NCBI GenBank assembly: GCA_947627805.1
Contig: CANQXB010000003.1
Location: 1 to 41,398 of the forward strand
From: an uncultured Bacilli bacterium
GTDB lineage: Bacteria > Bacillota_I > Bacilli_A > RF39 > UBA660
Direction of reading: 5' to 3'
DNA length: 41,398 nucleotides
The translations under genes and the position numbers were made by a program. A model generated the notes under the pieces. The model made no database searches, was not told where the DNA came from, and worked only from the letters and a program-made list of their open reading frames with translations. Positions 9,954 through 14,223 of this stretch are shown here, piece by piece (the stretch's first letter is position 1; each line of letters starts with the position of its first letter).

Positions 9954-12221
9954 ATGAAAGTAAAAGAAAAAAATAAATATCTTCCTTATCTTATCAATTC
10001 TTTAATTGTAATTGTAATTTTTTGTTTAATTTTATTATTAAGTAAAACATCTCCTTTTGGTGATGCTTTAGCTTTAGGTAAATCCGATGCTATTTATCAA
10101 TATAAACCAATGCTTTATAATTTTATTATGAAACTTAAAACGGGTACTTTATATCAGTTTAGTTTTAATAATGGGTTAGGTAATTCTTTCTTTTTTAATT
10201 TTGCTTATTATTTATCTAGTCCCCTAAATTTGGTAGCTATCTTTTTTAATAATCCTGATTTTATGTTTTTAAGTGTCATTTTAATTAAAATGAGCGTTAC
10301 CAGTTTATTTTGTACTTTTTATGCTAAAAGTAAAAATTGTTCTAATTTTACATCTTTGATAGTGACTATTTCTTATGCTTTTTGTAGTTGGTTAGTTGTT
10401 TATTATTACAATATTATGTGGTTAGATACCTTCATGATGTTTCCTTTATTTCAATATGGTTTAGAGAAGTTAATTGCTCAAAATAAACCCACCATTTTTA
10501 TTTTATCTTTAGCTTATATTTATGCCACTAATTTCTTATTAGCTTTTGCTGTTTTAATATATGGTCTAGTCTATTTTATAATTAAAAATTTCTTTTATGA
10601 CAAAAAAGAAATAAAGAAGAAATTAAAAACTTTTTTAATATTTATAGGTTCCTTTATTTTTAGTATTTTGTTAATTGCCTTTTATTTTTGTATTTTAATT
10701 GATGTTAAAAAACAAATGGGATTAGGTTTTTCTGATGCTAATGGTAATATGTATCTTGTTAGTACCATCGATTTTATTAAAAGTTTATTTTATGGTAATA
10801 ATATTTTAATGTTGGATTTTGCCGGGAATACTTTTCCTAATATTGCTGTTAATACTTTTATCTTTTTAAATGTTATTTATTATTTTTTAAATAGTAAAAT
10901 TTCCTCGCGTGATAAAGCTTTTACTTTTATAGGTATTTGTCTTGTTATCGTTTGTATTTTTTCCGTAAAAGTAGATTATATTATGAATTTTTTCCATAAT
11001 GTCGTGGGTTTAACATATCGTTATTCTTATATTTTCTCTTTTTTAGCAATTATGCTTTTTATAGAGAATGCTCAAAATTATGATAAAAAAGATTTTAAAA
11101 AAATGCTTCCTATTATTATAGCTTTATTATTAATCGTTTTATTATTAGGAACTAAGATGAATAAATTAATAGTAATTTTTAATGGGGTATCTTTATTATT
11201 TTGTTTATTTATCTTATTTTGTCAAAATGAAAAAGTTCTTAAATTATCTTTATCTTTTTTCGTAATAATTCAATCTTTATTAGTGGGTTATTTAACTATT
11301 CCTAATAAAGAAGAGAATAGTTATGAGAAATTGCCCAATAATTTTGAATCTAAACCTTTAAAATATCGTTTAACTACCATTGGGGAAAATGATTATTTAA
11401 ATAAAAATTTATATACTAATCAAGATGTTACTTATTCTTTTACTTCCATGACTTATAATGATACTTTAACACTAGTTAATAAATTAGGTTATTATGCGGG
11501 AAAAAATGGAATGTCTGGTAATATTCATAATGAATTATTTAATTTACTATTTAATGTTCAAAGTTCTAATAATTATTATTTAGAAAAAATATATACTGTT
11601 AATAAAAATATATTAGATATTAAATTTAGTGATAATGTAAAAAATAATACCGAAGATTTAATAAAGAAAATGACTGATGTTGAAAAAATATATGATAAAG
11701 TTATTTTAAAACCTACGGAAGAAGATGATAATTTCTATTATTTTCAAGTTGATGAAGAATATGCTTTATTAGAAGAGAAAGATAATGTAGAAGTTATTTC
11801 TAAAGGAAAAATAAAATTAAATAAGAATGCTTCTCAAGATAATTTAGTTATCTATAAATTAAATCAAGATAAGCTTAAAAAAATATATGAAATTCTTTCA
11901 ACTAAGCAAATTGCCTATACTTATTATAGGGATGATTTAATTGAAGGAAAAATTCAAGTTTCCGAAGACCAACTAATCTTTACTTCTATACCATATGATA
12001 CTAATTGGCATATAACTATTGATGGAAAAGAAGTACAACCGGTTAAATTATTAAATGCTTTAATTGGCATAGAAGTTGAACCGGGTAATCATACTTTAAA
12101 AATGGAATATCGTTTTGATTTAACAAAACCTCTTATTATTTCAATAGTATCTTTAACAACTTTGCTCGGAATTAATTTCTATACTATTAATAAAAAGAAA
12201 AAGAAAAAAGCTAAAAACTGA
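9954..12221 (+). CDS. YfhO-family polytopic membrane protein (GT-C-like, cell-wall polymer glycosylation)
   Basis: SD..YQY, GLG..F....AYYLSSPLN, NIMWLD motifs, many TM helices, C-terminal TSIPYD.NW...IDGK...GNH motif. Stop codon TGA is supplied by the IS end. Confidence 0.8.
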   Translation: MKVKEKNKYLPYLINSLIVIVIFCLILLLSKTSPFGDALALGKSDAIYQYKPMLYNFIMKLKTGTLYQFSFNNGLGNSFFFNFAYYLSSPLNLVAIFFNNPDFMFLSVILIKMSVTSLFCTFYAKSKNCSNFTSLIVTISYAFCSWLVVYYYNIMWLDTFMMFPLFQYGLEKLIAQNKPTIFILSLAYIYATNFLLAFAVLIYGLVYFIIKNFFYDKKEIKKKLKTFLIFIGSFIFSILLIAFYFCILIDVKKQMGLGFSDANGNMYLVSTIDFIKSLFYGNNILMLDFAGNTFPNIAVNTFIFLNVIYYFLNSKISSRDKAFTFIGICLVIVCIFSVKVDYIMNFFHNVVGLTYRYSYIFSFLAIMLFIENAQNYDKKDFKKMLPIIIALLLIVLLLGTKMNKLIVIFNGVSLLFCLFILFCQNEKVLKLSLSFFVIIQSLLVGYLTIPNKEENSYEKLPNNFESKPLKYRLTTIGENDYLNKNLYTNQDVTYSFTSMTYNDTLTLVNKLGYYAGKNGMSGNIHNELFNLLFNVQSSNNYYLEKIYTVNKNILDIKFSDNVKNNTEDLIKKMTDVEKIYDKVILKPTEEDDNFYYFQVDEEYALLEEKDNVEVISKGKIKLNKNASQDNLVIYKLNQDKLKKIYEILSTKQIAYTYYRDDLIEGKIQVSEDQLIFTSIPYDTNWHITIDGKEVQPVKLLNALIGIEVEPGNHTLKMEYRFDLTKPLIISIVSLTTLLGINFYTINKKKKKKAKN
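12208..12218 (+). repeat. Target-site duplication, left copy (11 bp)
   Basis: AAGCTAAAAAC, identical to 13912-13922 and abutting the left IR. Confidence 0.9.
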
Positions 12222-12311
12222 TTGAATTAAAAGGAAAGTTCCCAAAATAGTAAAAAAAATAAAATAAATGATTAAAGTCCCGAAAATAAATAAAAAAATT
12301 AATAAAAAAAC

Positions 12312-12340
12312 TTGAAAAAAACAAATAATTTTGTTAATCT
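12312..12340 (+). promoter_or_regulatory. Inward-facing sigmaA-like promoter in the IS left end
   Basis: TTGAAA-17bp-TAATCT with extended TG; same TGtTAATCT -10 as the hup promoter in this window. Confidence 0.6.
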
Positions 12341-12344
12341 ATAC

Positions 12345-12492
12345 ATGTCCAAAAGAAAATGGACATACTAAAAAGTGTACGTAGTAAAGTCTTTTTACGA
12401 CTAACTTCCCGTACAATAAAAGAGAAAAGATTAATAATTGGCTTATTTGTCAACGAAGAAGCGGAAGAAATAATCTTCTGCTTTTTCGTTGA
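12345..12492 (+). ncRNA. Candidate IS-encoded three-hairpin RNA, convergent with the transposase
   Basis: Stems 12345-51/12360-66, 12376-81/12410-15 and 19-bp 12450-68/12474-92. Two G-U pairs in the last stem work only on the + strand. Confidence 0.55.
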
Positions 12493-12500
12493 AATAATAA

Positions 12501-13697
12501 TTAAAGAATACTTTCAATATTTAACGATACATCATCCGGTTTAATATATCTATAATTAAGTTTTTTAATTAAATCAGGGTAGTATTTTAAAGTTTCTTCG
12601 TAAGGTGTCTTACCTTTTAAAATATCTCTAGGAATATTGTTAATTGTTTCTTCTAATTTTTGAATTTGTTTTTCAGTTACATTGTCTAAATCATAACCTT
12701 TGGGAAACACTCTTCTTATATATTCATGGTTTCTTTCAATATTACTTTTTTGCCAAGATGAGTATGGTTTGCAATAAAAGACATTGCAAGTTTTATTTCC
12801 TGTATTGTAATCTATTTCAATACATAAAGGGTCATAAAACTCTATTCCATTGTCAGTTAAGATGATTCTAAATATTTTAGAAAATAATTTAATCCCTAAT
12901 TTTTCTTTTAATTTATTTATTTCTTTATTTACACAAGCAATATTTTTCTTATCAAGTAATCTAATAAACATAAATTTAGTATTTTTAATAAGAATAGTTA
13001 ATAATACTTTATGACCTTTTTTCCCTTCAACTGTATCCATTTCGCAAATATTCATTTTAGGATGTTTAGAAATAAAATCTAAATAATCTTCATAAGTTCT
13101 TCCTTTAAGAAGAGATATTTTTCTTTTGTAATCATTATCATATTTTTTCTTTCTACTTTTGTATTTAACCTTTTTAGGTAAATCTATGTTAGATAAAGAC
13201 AAAACATTTAAATCGACATATTTGTAAAAAGTAGGTTTAGACATATATAAAATATCGGAATGATTAATATAGACTTGATTAATACTTTGTTTTTTGTTCT
13301 TTATTAAAGGAACAATAGATTTTTCAATTTCTTCAGCAACTTCAGGAGATATATCAACACCCTCACGAGAAGAAGATAAAACCTCTTCATAATGTTCTTG
13401 AGCCACTTTAGCATTGTAATAAACTTTAGCATTTAAACAATATTTTTTATTGGGACAAGGATTACATACATAAGGAGGTTTTTTAAGAGTTTTGCATTTG
13501 GAAATAGTATTTTGGATAATATTTTGGTCAAAATGATTTTTATCATATTTAACATATCTATTTCTTTTAATTTCTTTAGAGATAGTAGTACGGTCAGAAG
13601 AAACAGCTTTACCAATATAAGAAAAAGATTTATTTAAACTAATTAAATATTCAATATTATTACGTTGTTCTTTGCATAAATGTGAATAATTTGTCAT
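12501..13697 (-). CDS. IS30-family DDE transposase
   Basis: N-terminal HTH (YSHL..EQR..IE...TTISKEIKRN), Cys motif PPYVCN.C, catalytic EMDTVEG / LTDNGIEF / IERNH..IRR. Start moved to ATG 13697 behind RBS AAAGGAG. Confidence 0.95.
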   Translation of the reverse strand: MTNYSHLCKEQRNNIEYLISLNKSFSYIGKAVSSDRTTISKEIKRNRYVKYDKNHFDQNIIQNTISKCKTLKKPPYVCNPCPNKKYCLNAKVYYNAKVAQEHYEEVLSSSREGVDISPEVAEEIEKSIVPLIKNKKQSINQVYINHSDILYMSKPTFYKYVDLNVLSLSNIDLPKKVKYKSRKKKYDNDYKRKISLLKGRTYEDYLDFISKHPKMNICEMDTVEGKKGHKVLLTILIKNTKFMFIRLLDKKNIACVNKEINKLKEKLGIKLFSKIFRIILTDNGIEFYDPLCIEIDYNTGNKTCNVFYCKPYSSWQKSNIERNHEYIRRVFPKGYDLDNVTEKQIQKLEETINNIPRDILKGKTPYEETLKYYPDLIKKLNYRYIKPDDVSLNIESIL

Positions 13698-13720
13698 CAA
13701 AATGACTCCTTTCTTTAATA

Positions 13721-13773
13721 ATGACAAATAAACCAATGAGGTATATAATATACTTATAAAGGAAAATAATCAA
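13721..13773. promoter_or_regulatory. Overlapping divergent promoters in the IS right end
   Basis: - strand TTGATT(13768-73)-17bp-TATTAT(13745-50) facing the transposase; + strand ATGACA(13721-26)-17bp-TATAAT(13744-49) facing outward. Confidence 0.6.
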
Positions 13774-13880
13774 TAATCCTCGCCGGATGGGCCTTACTTT
13801 CTTTTACGAAAAAGAAAGATAAGCAAAGAAACCGGGGAATGATTATTTAAGTGTTTTAATGACTTATTGCTCATCTTTAA
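13756..13880 (+). ncRNA. Candidate IS-encoded multi-stem, pseudoknotted RNA
   Basis: Stems 13764-72/13840-48, TCC..CCGG/CCGG.GGA, CTTTCTTTT/AAAAGAAAG, and a crossing pairing GATGGGC(13786-92)/GCTCATC(13869-75). Confidence 0.55.
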
Positions 13881-13911
13881 AAATTTGGGAACTTCTAATT
13901 TTATTTAATCA

Positions 13912-13922
13912 AAGCTAAAAAC
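13912..13922 (+). repeat. Target-site duplication, right copy (11 bp)
   Basis: AAGCTAAAAAC followed by TAG, the apparent original stop codon of the YfhO-family gene. Confidence 0.9.
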
Positions 13923-13925
13923 TAG

Positions 13926-13954
13926 TTGACTTTAAAACTATTTGTGATTAAAAT
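13926..13954 (+). promoter_or_regulatory. sigmaA promoter of the 71-aa ORF
   Basis: TTGACT-17bp-TAAAAT. Confidence 0.75.
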
Positions 13955-13981
13955 ACATACTCACGCAAAGGAAGTGATATT

Positions 13982-14197
13982 GTGATAACAAATGAAGAAG
14001 CTGTTGCCTTTTTAATGTTATTTGGTCGTAGTGAAGCTAAAGCTAGAAAAATACTTGCTAGTCCTTCAGGAGTTAATTATAAAAGTATAATAGCTGAATT
14101 TATAAATAATGTTAGAATAAAAAAGAGCGACCCAACTTTAGACGTTTTAGCTTATTTACAAAATAATCCTCAAGAAGTAAAAAGAAAACCATTTTAA
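13982..14197 (+). CDS. Small hypothetical protein (71 aa)
   Basis: GTG start, RBS AAGGAAG, own promoter, host-like codon usage; no recognised motif. Confidence 0.7.
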   Translation: MITNEEAVAFLMLFGRSEAKARKILASPSGVNYKSIIAEFINNVRIKKSDPTLDVLAYLQNNPQEVKRKPF

Positions 14198-14223
14198 ACA
14201 AAAGAAAACCATTTTAAACAAAA
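14180..14223 (+). repeat. Perfect 20-bp tandem duplication
   Basis: AAAGAAAACCATTTTAAACA x2 (14181-14200, 14201-14220), spanning the stop codon. Confidence 0.95.

Follow-up and report, generated by a model that had tools for sequence, protein, structure and literature searches.

An IS30-family insertion sequence of gut Bacilli with conserved non-coding ends, a predicted antisense RNA and a promoter-linked insertion site

We analysed a 41,398-nt stretch of DNA from an uncultured Bacilli bacterium of the RF39 lineage (contig CANQXB010000003.1 of assembly GCA_947627805.1, positions 1 to 41,398, here called the window), in which an insertion sequence (IS) of the IS30 family occupies positions 12220 to 13910 on the minus strand. 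The element has a transposase gene between two non-coding ends, and an earlier note on this DNA had proposed that both ends encode structured RNAs on the opposite strand. Comparison with relatives points to a conserved unit for a small RNA (sRNA) in the left end, to a pair of promoters in the right end, and to insertion at a fixed distance upstream of host promoters.

The Element and Its Transposase

The element is 1691 bp long, with 281 bp of non-coding DNA at the left end and 213 bp at the right (494 bp in all). Its termini are imperfect inverted repeats with arms of 36 nt (12219-12254 and 13876-13911) that are 75% complementary. The parts within the element lie at 12220 to 12254 (core AAGTTCCC) and 13876 to 13910 (core GGGAACTTC), and in the right one the transposase strand reads TAAAAT at 8-13 nt from the tip. 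The core region recurs as a direct repeat at 12274-12307 in the left end, and there are further sub-terminal copies of the core in both ends. An exact 13-bp target duplication, AAAGCTAAAAACT, flanks the element at 12207 to 12219 and at 13911 to 13923, and the last T of the duplication together with the first GA of the element makes the TGA stop codon of an upstream open reading frame (ORF) of 755 aa.

The earlier note had recognised the IS30-family element and its roughly 500 bp of non-coding DNA; its length of 1693 bp is corrected here by 2 bp, and its 11-bp target duplication is replaced by the 13 bp measured, a length also found, approximately, at four sister copies described below. The GC enrichment that it saw in the ends is present as a mild rise, to 0.31 at 12340-12459 and 0.36 at 13780-13859, compared to 0.14-0.25 nearby.

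The transposase gene (12501 to 13697, minus strand, 398 aa) is the sole long ORF of the element and looks intact. The protein matched the NCBIfam IS30 model (NF033563, transpos_IS30) with 117.5 bits relative to a cut-off of 80 (E 8e-34), and residues 4-46 matched the Pfam family HTH_38 (E 8e-9). In eight homologs, down to 32% identity, residues D221, D282 and E321 as well as C68, C78, C81 and C87 were invariant, and the four cysteines surround a PPYVCNxC motif, which is the PPYVCN.C motif that had been noted earlier. The Pfam rve domain was not matched by the transposase, and a PDB sequence search with it gave no match. By these matches and invariant residues, the transposase is a DDE enzyme with its own N-terminal helix-turn-helix (HTH) domain, and the element is assigned to the IS30 family as a member of atypical size and duplication length.

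Relatives of the Element and Conservation of the Ends

Relatives with transposases 50-77% identical were collected from metagenome contigs and species-representative genomes. A pattern search of 301 genomes of another carrier's family gave three further true left units, the remaining matches being chance-like, and no additional left unit was found in nine carrier genomes in which such units were sought. The subgroup members are 1.7-1.9 kb long with 13-bp target duplications, and one host, which has a complete 1.34-Mb chromosome, carries four identical copies, each with a duplication of about 13 bp.

The genome assembly from which the window comes (62% complete, 1.16 Mb) contains a second, diverged copy on contig C13, the transposase of which is 62% identical to that of the window copy. 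About 85 nt downstream and about 125 nt upstream of the gene are near-identical in these two copies: the non-coding blocks have about 98% DNA identity over 80-120 nt, whereas the genes have about 73%. Therefore, the ends are better conserved than the protein (about 98% compared to 62% identity).

Near-identical blocks in two copies of one genome could result from recent recombination or gene conversion and not from selection, and the difference between blocks and genes is what such an event would leave. Furthermore, a right-end cassette called M1, described below, is common to elements with transposases only 26-40% identical, which means that modules do move. However, 18 distinct sequences, drawn from many genomes, retain the left unit with compensatory changes, the outward promoter of the right end is also kept in the subgroup, and module exchange would account for the location of a cassette and not for its maintenance; we consider gene conversion a very improbable explanation. 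As judged by these alignments, the element belongs to what is a distinct IS30-family subgroup of small-genome gut Bacilli with conserved non-coding ends, in agreement with the earlier suggestion of an IS30 subgroup.

Most relatives have a small second ORF (ORF2) of 57-85 aa, the ATG of which overlaps the transposase stop codon (TAATG). Examples are at loci L112 (L112:2709-2882) and L121 (L121:2714-2938), and ORF2 is also present at L113, L099, L117-L123 and L101. It is absent from the window copy and the C13 copy. A type I toxin-antitoxin interpretation of ORF2 was rejected because the product looks acidic and not hydrophobic by eye, belongs to no Pfam family, and is missing in the window copy.

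The Left End

The left end contains a predicted promoter with an extended -10 on the plus strand (TTGAAA-17-TG-T-TAATCT, 12312 to 12340), followed by a candidate sRNA of about 146 nt, sRNA-A (12347 to 12492, plus strand, both ends inferred), which is convergent with the transposase gene. From 5′ to 3′, the unit consists of a hairpin H1 of variable sequence among relatives (12345-12366), an AAAAAG run (12370-12375) of which the AAAAA (UUUUU on the minus strand) is invariant, a covarying hairpin H2 (12376-12415), a 14-nt motif TGGCTTATTTGTCA (12439-12452), and a hairpin H5 (12451 to 12491), which is the predicted intrinsic terminator of sRNA-A and lies 9 nt from the transposase stop codon. On the transposase strand, H2 is followed by C and UUUUU, and thus the same segment (12370 to 12415, minus strand) reads as a predicted terminator of the transposase mRNA. 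A copy of the inverted-repeat core, AACTTCCCG (12403-12411), lies in the internal loop of H2.

The order of these parts (promoter, H1, AAAAA(G), H2, variable spacer, TGGCTTATTTGYCA and H5) was the same in 18 of 18 distinct left ends, and in these 18 sequences H5 and its U-run directly follow the stop codon of either the transposase gene or the small second ORF. The -10 was found at a consistent position in all 18 relatives and was TG-extended in 13 of them, and its positions T10, A11 and T15 (TAnnnT) were invariant in 15 of 15 aligned sequences. The left end of the window copy folded on the plus strand with -46.9 kcal/mol (z -7.1 relative to shuffles), and the left unit as a whole was more stable on the plus strand in 11 of 15 sequences.

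The pairing was evaluated by naming helices H2, H4 and H5 by hand and then counting pairs relative to shuffles and to slid controls. In H2, 82.8% of the cells were paired compared to 75.0% in the shuffles, none of which was as high (0/500), and 22-49% in the slid controls; changes on both sides were found in seven of ten pairs, a number seen in 5/500 shuffles. For H2, H4 and H5 together, the values were 84.7% compared to 80.5% paired (0/500 shuffles) and 38-52% in the slid controls, with double changes in 12 of 30 pairs (2/500 shuffles). The outer stem of H2, for example, occurs as GTACG/CGTAC, ACACG/CGTGT, ATTCG/CGAAT and GTATG/CATAC. The earlier note had looked to covariation among relatives to judge its proposal, and the left-end structure is indeed conserved with compensatory changes.

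The strand on which each hairpin acts was approached through energies and G-U pairs. Summed over 15 sequences, H5 had -276 kcal/mol on the plus strand and -186 kcal/mol on the minus strand, and in 18 sequences it had 29 G-U pairs on the plus strand and nine on the minus strand. Because H5 is more stable and richer in G-U pairs on the plus strand, it is probably the terminator of a plus-strand RNA. The outer stem of H2 has the opposite tendency, in that ten cells pair on the minus strand only (C-A on plus, U-G on minus) and one on the plus strand only.

Rfam gave no match to the window region at E values up to 10, and none near a gathering score. There was also no match in the elements of 17 related loci, where the only credible matches were to a tRNA and a partial tmRNA in the flanks, outside the elements. 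The left unit thus represents a candidate RNA family without an Rfam entry. A small-protein interpretation of the left end (a 61-aa ORF at 12359-12544) was tried and rejected, since the C13 copy lacks an ATG at that place.

Some sequences of the left end recur elsewhere in the element. The core copy in the loop of H2 is AAGTTCCCG or a variant of it, and rare variants are shared with the inverted repeats: TGCCC in L120 and the copy of genome G036, and CTCCC in L099. The 14-nt motif before H5 recurs in inverted orientation at 13722-13735, immediately before the ribosome-binding site of the transposase gene. L119-L121 have an A-to-G change in both copies, and at positions where the two copies differ, a T in the leader copy corresponds to a C in the 3′ copy. 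The paired motif and the core copy in H2 could be either transposase sites on DNA or sequences through which the 5′ leader and the 3′ untranslated region (3′UTR) of the transposase mRNA pair.

The conserved blocks as a whole might be DNA sites, namely extra transposase-binding sites (the core copies in H2 and at 12274-12307) together with TGGCTTATTTGTCA and its inverted counterpart as an operator pair on either side of the gene, with the hairpins as ordinary insulating terminators. The presence of the core in the internal loop of H2, the tracking of its variants, the joint change of the motif pair around the gene, and the other sub-terminal core copies in each end would all fit with this. However, a DNA site needs neither an invariant TAnnnT -10 with an upstream TG extension, nor a terminator with 29 compared to nine strand-specific G-U pairs, nor changes that keep a stem intact, such as GTACG/CGTAC to ACACG/CGTGT, and locus L117 breaks the match of the cores (ATTCCC in H2, GTTCCC in the right repeat and TGCCC in the left sites). 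We regard DNA sites as a full explanation of the blocks to be unlikely, although an appreciable chance has to be allowed for it, and the DNA-site and RNA interpretations are compatible with each other.

The Right End

The right end contains two predicted promoters that share a -10 region. The outward promoter, P-out (ATGACA-17-TATAAT, 13721 to 13749, plus strand), has 11 of 12 matches and is the best site of the region; its -35 lies within TGACAAATAAACCA (13722-13735), the motif that repeats 12439-12452 in inverted form. The predicted transposase promoter, P_tnp (TTGATT-17-TATTAT), lies at 13745 to 13773 on the minus strand. The -35 of P-out, its 17-nt spacer and a TATNNT -10 were kept in 12 of 13 distinct elements, and a P_tnp with 8-10 of 12 matches shared that -10 in 13 of 13. 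These positions, together with those of the left -10, are in accord with the earlier assignment of a promoter to the strand opposite the transposase in both ends. Because the two promoters diverge, their transcripts would not overlap. If the predictions are right, RNA polymerase on the shared -10 can serve either P-out or P_tnp but not both at once.

A cassette separates P-out from the right repeat; in the window it is M1 (13773 to 13847), a long imperfect hairpin whose core reads CTTTCTTTT-ACGA-AAAAGAAAG (13797-13818). The cassette varies within the subgroup: M1 is present in the window copy, the C13 copy and genome G008, and other members have M1 followed by a second module, M2, an unrelated two-hairpin type, or a large GC-rich type. 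M1, single or in tandem with M2, was found in seven genomes of the genus. It also occurs beside the distantly related transposases mentioned above and without any transposase. No terminator-like site was called in the element region on either strand.

An M2-like module (GGCGGCA CTTTCTT..AAGAAAG TG AAAAGAA) followed by a strong terminator was also observed at G000:C19:1525-1550 (L061) and G036:C10:25602-25627 (L052), in a conserved chromosomal intergenic region with no transposase. This chromosomal module had no Rfam match and no adjacent tRNA or tmRNA.

Target Sites and the Guide-RNA Question

Right flanks of at least 75 nt were available for 15 of about 21 right ends; those left out were at contig ends (C13, L118, L119, L120 and L122), had a truncated end (L121) or lacked a right end (L100). 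It was found that in 15 of 15 flanks the best sigma-70-like promoter points away from the element, with the start of its -35 at 15-18 nt and the start of its -10 at 38-41 nt from the element end, and that its score was at least 11 in 13 of 15. In random 75-nt windows of the genome (n = 19,950), the best -10 fell at 38-41 in 10.4%, and with that score in 0.2%. The left flanks (n = 7) yielded no fixed-distance promoter rule in either reading direction. The orientation of insertion is constant, with the transposase gene directed away from the host gene, and a host gene follows the right end in the direction of P-out at seven of the eight loci with enough flank. The 13-bp duplication ends 2-3 nt upstream of the host -35, and the -35 and -10 of the target promoters vary in sequence.

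In the window, this promoter is TTGACT-17-TAAAAT (13926 to 13954, plus strand), located 16 nt beyond the right end of the element. Its presence without the element in three related genomes (L154-L156) marks it as a host promoter. In those genomes, the promoter and the small gene that it precedes (13926-14197) come after ffh, whereas in the window they come after a gene for a yfhO-like membrane protein. This difference, seen when 9954-12221 and 13926-14200 of the window were compared with L154-L156, indicates a rearrangement at or near the insertion point, and therefore the closest genomes do not provide a clean empty site.

At locus L115, which is one of the sister copies, the left-flank duplication took the 3′ half and the U-run of the terminator of the upstream gene; therefore, this copy inserted into the short stretch that separates a terminator from the promoter after it.

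The precision of the target choice, the structured and promoter-driven RNA candidates in both ends, and a core copy in an internal loop that would be able to base-pair with the other strand at the element ends might suggest that the end RNAs are guides or cofactors of the transposase, which choose target or donor DNA by pairing, as do the bridge/seek RNAs of IS110/IS1111 and the omega RNA of IS200/605. The earlier note had raised such targeting, and the data speak against it. The four identical copies in one complete genome, and hence four identical sets of RNAs, occupy four different 13-bp duplications, so that no RNA loop specifies the target; the targets share a host promoter of varying -35 and -10 sequence, to which no variable loop corresponds. 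The sole covarying RNA motif tracked the inverted-repeat core and not the target. In addition, the right cassette is exchangeable among at least three unrelated types within the subgroup, the enzyme is a DDE transposase that has an HTH of its own, and the ORFs of the element include no gene for TnpB, IscB or an IS110-type recombinase. We give a guide function hardly any weight.

How the site is found may be explained in two other ways. The left tip of the element, GA-TTGAAT, resembles NN-TTGACA, and one possibility, by analogy with IS30, is a preference for sites that resemble the element's own ends; another possibility is recognition of bound RNA polymerase. A more far-reaching version, which we consider speculative and doubtful, is that the transpososome recognises sigma-A promoters or the polymerase bound to them and makes its two cuts, spaced by 13 bp, where the -35 begins on its upstream side, and that the left sRNA imitates the element end through its core copy and, as a decoy or loader, binds the transposase. 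In that case RNA would control a DDE transposase at the level of the protein, and the enzyme would be directed to regions where transcription starts.

Proposed Mode of Action

The interpretation that we prefer combines a conserved left sRNA unit, antisense control of the transposase gene, two promoters that share a -10, and insertion upstream of a host promoter. We assign a probability of roughly 0.55 to this combination as one reading, and regulation by an element-encoded antisense RNA is the best reading. The left unit would give rise to sRNA-A, about 146 nt long and terminated at H5, and the transposase mRNA would pass H5 and end at H2, near 12370. The two RNAs would then overlap by about 120 nt, with two facing terminators that each lie beyond the other, a layout as in 3′-overlapping antisense pairs; this overlap is obtained only if the transposase mRNA ends at H2. 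sRNA-A would be cis-antisense to the 3′UTR and would lower the stability of the transposase mRNA. At the right end, P-out would compete with the weaker P_tnp for the shared -10, its RNA would be an antisense RNA for transcripts of any kind that come in from outside the element or from a circle junction, and its transcription would continue into the host gene. The combined effect would be low transposition and an insertion that is nearly harmless. The earlier note had suggested that the transposase is regulated by, or works with, element-encoded RNAs; the conserved opposite-strand promoters and the covariation of the left end favour the first alternative in the form of antisense regulation, and guidance of the transposase is not supported.

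Several observations weigh against this combined interpretation. The promoters, transcript starts and transcript ends of the element are predictions from sequence, and promoter-like hexamers are common in very AT-rich DNA (13 were found in the region and 13.4 are expected). The core copy in H2 and the motif pair at 12439-12452 and 13722-13735 could be transposase sites on DNA instead of RNA features. The consensus obtained by RNAalifold from a raw MAFFT alignment was weak (-5.99 kcal/mol). The shuffle controls overstate significance because the 15-18 sequences in the alignments are related; the slid controls and the double changes nonetheless look clear. The inner stem of H2 has a bias opposite to that of the outer stem, with 11 cells that pair on the plus strand only and five on the minus strand only, which suggests that H2 may be active on both strands or that the inner-stem alignment is imperfect. 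At the right end, the fold of the window copy was no better than shuffles (z -0.96), M1 has a single compensatory change (CTTA/TAAG to ATTA/TAAT, in two of seven), and the cassettes designated type 3 had -47 to -57 kcal/mol on the transposase strand compared to -35 to -45 kcal/mol on the other, in five of five.

The strand preferences at the right end can also be taken to mean that the cassette acts on the transposase strand, either as a terminator or insulator or as the structured leader of transcripts that enter from the right repeat or a circle junction, while P-out mainly restores transcription of the host gene and the outward RNA has no function. The large type and the L112 type are both clearly more stable on the transposase strand: for type-3 and L112-type cassettes the difference is 5-16 kcal/mol, with 7-14 compared to 2-5 G-U pairs, in six of six. 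The outer CCAG/CCGG helix of M1 at L013 and L015 pairs on the transposase strand only, an inward -10-like TAAAAT or TATAGT is found 7-14 nt inside the right tip of relatives, and the host genes in the direction of P-out at seven of eight loci would be the ones whose transcription is restored. On the other hand, the two strands of M1 in the window fold alike (-25.6 compared to -25.9 kcal/mol), the type-2 cassettes are mixed (the transposase strand gives the better fold in two of three), neither strand of the region had a called terminator-like site, and P-out is the best-conserved promoter of the element. We judge this explanation of the right end to be rather unlikely.

With respect to our preferred interpretation, the better folding of the relatives' cassettes on the transposase strand nevertheless implies that the outward RNA is perhaps not the selected product there. 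The right-end structure is probably real yet exchangeable, and its earlier assignment to the plus strand is unsupported. Structure on the strand opposite the transposase, as the earlier note had it, was therefore borne out for the left end (z -7.1) and not for the right, and part of H2 and several right cassettes favour the transposase strand.

Comparison with Known Systems

Like IS30 of E. coli, the element described here has a single long ORF between terminal inverted repeats, and this ORF encodes a DDE transposase that begins with an HTH. Members of the IS30 family are typically about 1.0-1.25 kb long with 2-3-bp duplications, and IS30 prefers sites that resemble its own ends. The present element differs in its length of 1.69 kb, compared to about 1.2 kb, and in its 13-bp duplication, compared to 2-3 bp. 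The antisense RNA of IS30 lies inside the transposase gene, whereas the candidate described here overlaps the 3′UTR. The back-to-back promoters, the exchangeable cassette and the promoter-linked target go beyond IS30.

Antisense RNA control of transposases is textbook knowledge for IS10. In IS10/Tn10, a strong outward promoter, pOUT, lies beside the weak transposase promoter and makes the structured RNA-OUT, and the present element is similar in that a strong promoter facing away from the transposase gene is predicted beside a weak transposase promoter. However, RNA-OUT overlaps the start of the transposase mRNA, whereas P-out and P_tnp share a -10 and diverge, so that their transcripts would not overlap. 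The predicted layout of the left end resembles 3′-overlapping cis-antisense pairs of Firmicutes such as bsrG/SR4 and txpA/RatA, which have the type I toxin-antitoxin layout: the genes are convergent, each terminator lies beyond the other, and about 100-120 nt of the 3′ ends are complementary. The bsrG and txpA mRNAs encode toxins, whereas the mRNA here encodes a transposase. As for the target, Ty3 and Ty1 insert near Pol III promoters and Tn7 at attTn7, which is safe-site targeting; like them, the present element is found at a fixed place beside a gene control region, where coding sequence is spared in a dense genome. The enzymes and hosts are different, and the signal here is apparently a sigma-A-type promoter.

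The earlier note knew of no RNAs for IS30 elements, a statement that has to be qualified: antisense control of the IS10, IS30 and IS200 transposases, and with it an inhibitory antisense RNA of IS30, is cited in the text of PMC8450116. RNA-OUT is named in PMC4555090, according to which transposase genes of the IS30 family show enriched antisense transcription in metatranscriptomes of the gut. The closest precedent for the duplication is IS1630 of Mycoplasma fermentans, an IS30-type element that, like the present one, combines a small low-GC genome with long duplications, of 16, 23, 25 and 26 bp in four copies (PMC3317919). IS1630 is 1178-1384 bp long and the present element 1691 bp, with a duplication fixed at 13 bp and a target at the upstream edge of a promoter; the sections of PMC3317919 used here report no end RNAs.

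The closest precedent for the RNAs is ISPpu9 of Pseudomonas putida, an IS110-family element in which the transposase gene lies between two sRNAs of about 180 nt, Asr9 and Ssr9; the element has a structured 5′ untranslated region (5′UTR) and targets REP sequences (PMC8450116). Asr9 is antisense to the 5′UTR and activating, and Ssr9 is a sense-strand RNA that sponges Asr9; in the sections of that paper drawn on here, the authors state that no other IS with two sRNAs was known to them (PMC8450116). In the present element, the left RNA would be antisense to the 3′UTR and the right RNA would have no overlap with the predicted transposase mRNA, and the RNAs are predicted from sequence, whereas those of ISPpu9 were demonstrated experimentally (PMC8450116). 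Our literature searches, which covered main texts, found no report of an IS30 subgroup with end-encoded RNAs or promoter-linked insertion.

The element would therefore be an IS with antisense RNA control, which is a known kind, in a new variant, together with a target rule that we have not found described. If this is true, the element-encoded sRNA pair is extended from ISPpu9, as presented in PMC8450116, and its IS110 family to the IS30 family, with a different layout that consists of a 3′UTR antisense RNA and promoters sharing a -10. Insertion at a fixed distance and in a fixed orientation before host promoters would be a bacterial parallel to the safe-site targeting of yeast Ty elements, and it would explain the persistence of an IS in gene-dense genomes of 1.2 Mb. 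If the signal is the promoter itself, then there is a simple rule for the prediction of insertion sites and a handle on a DDE enzyme that reads promoter DNA.

Other Loci with Structured Modules

At locus L040 (G034:C10, 9568-10486), an M1+M2 cassette was observed together with an 89-aa ORF and a shortened IS30-like ORF of 218 aa, which retains the HTH and part of the catalytic region; the locus is near the genes of the replication origin (dnaA ... rsmG, then parA/parB). Arrays of TTCTCAAAGTAAATGCAA surround M1+M2 in other genomes (L013-L015), and repeats such as GGAAAAGTAAAAGCAAC are present at the contig ends G000:C13:14700-14773 and G000:C39:7800-7873. The arrays and the contig-end repeats resemble the multi-site ends of another, unassembled mobile element, and the C13 copy of the IS abuts one of the contig-end repeats.

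A different conserved block of about 115 nt, which forms one long hairpin (CATTGATCAATAGGCAGG ... CCTATTGTCAATG), was observed in IS30-like elements of the same genus with transposases 41-46% identical, downstream of the transposase gene at L065 and L077 and upstream of it at L082. Because this hairpin block is found on either side of the gene, structured non-coding cargo seems to be common in these elements.

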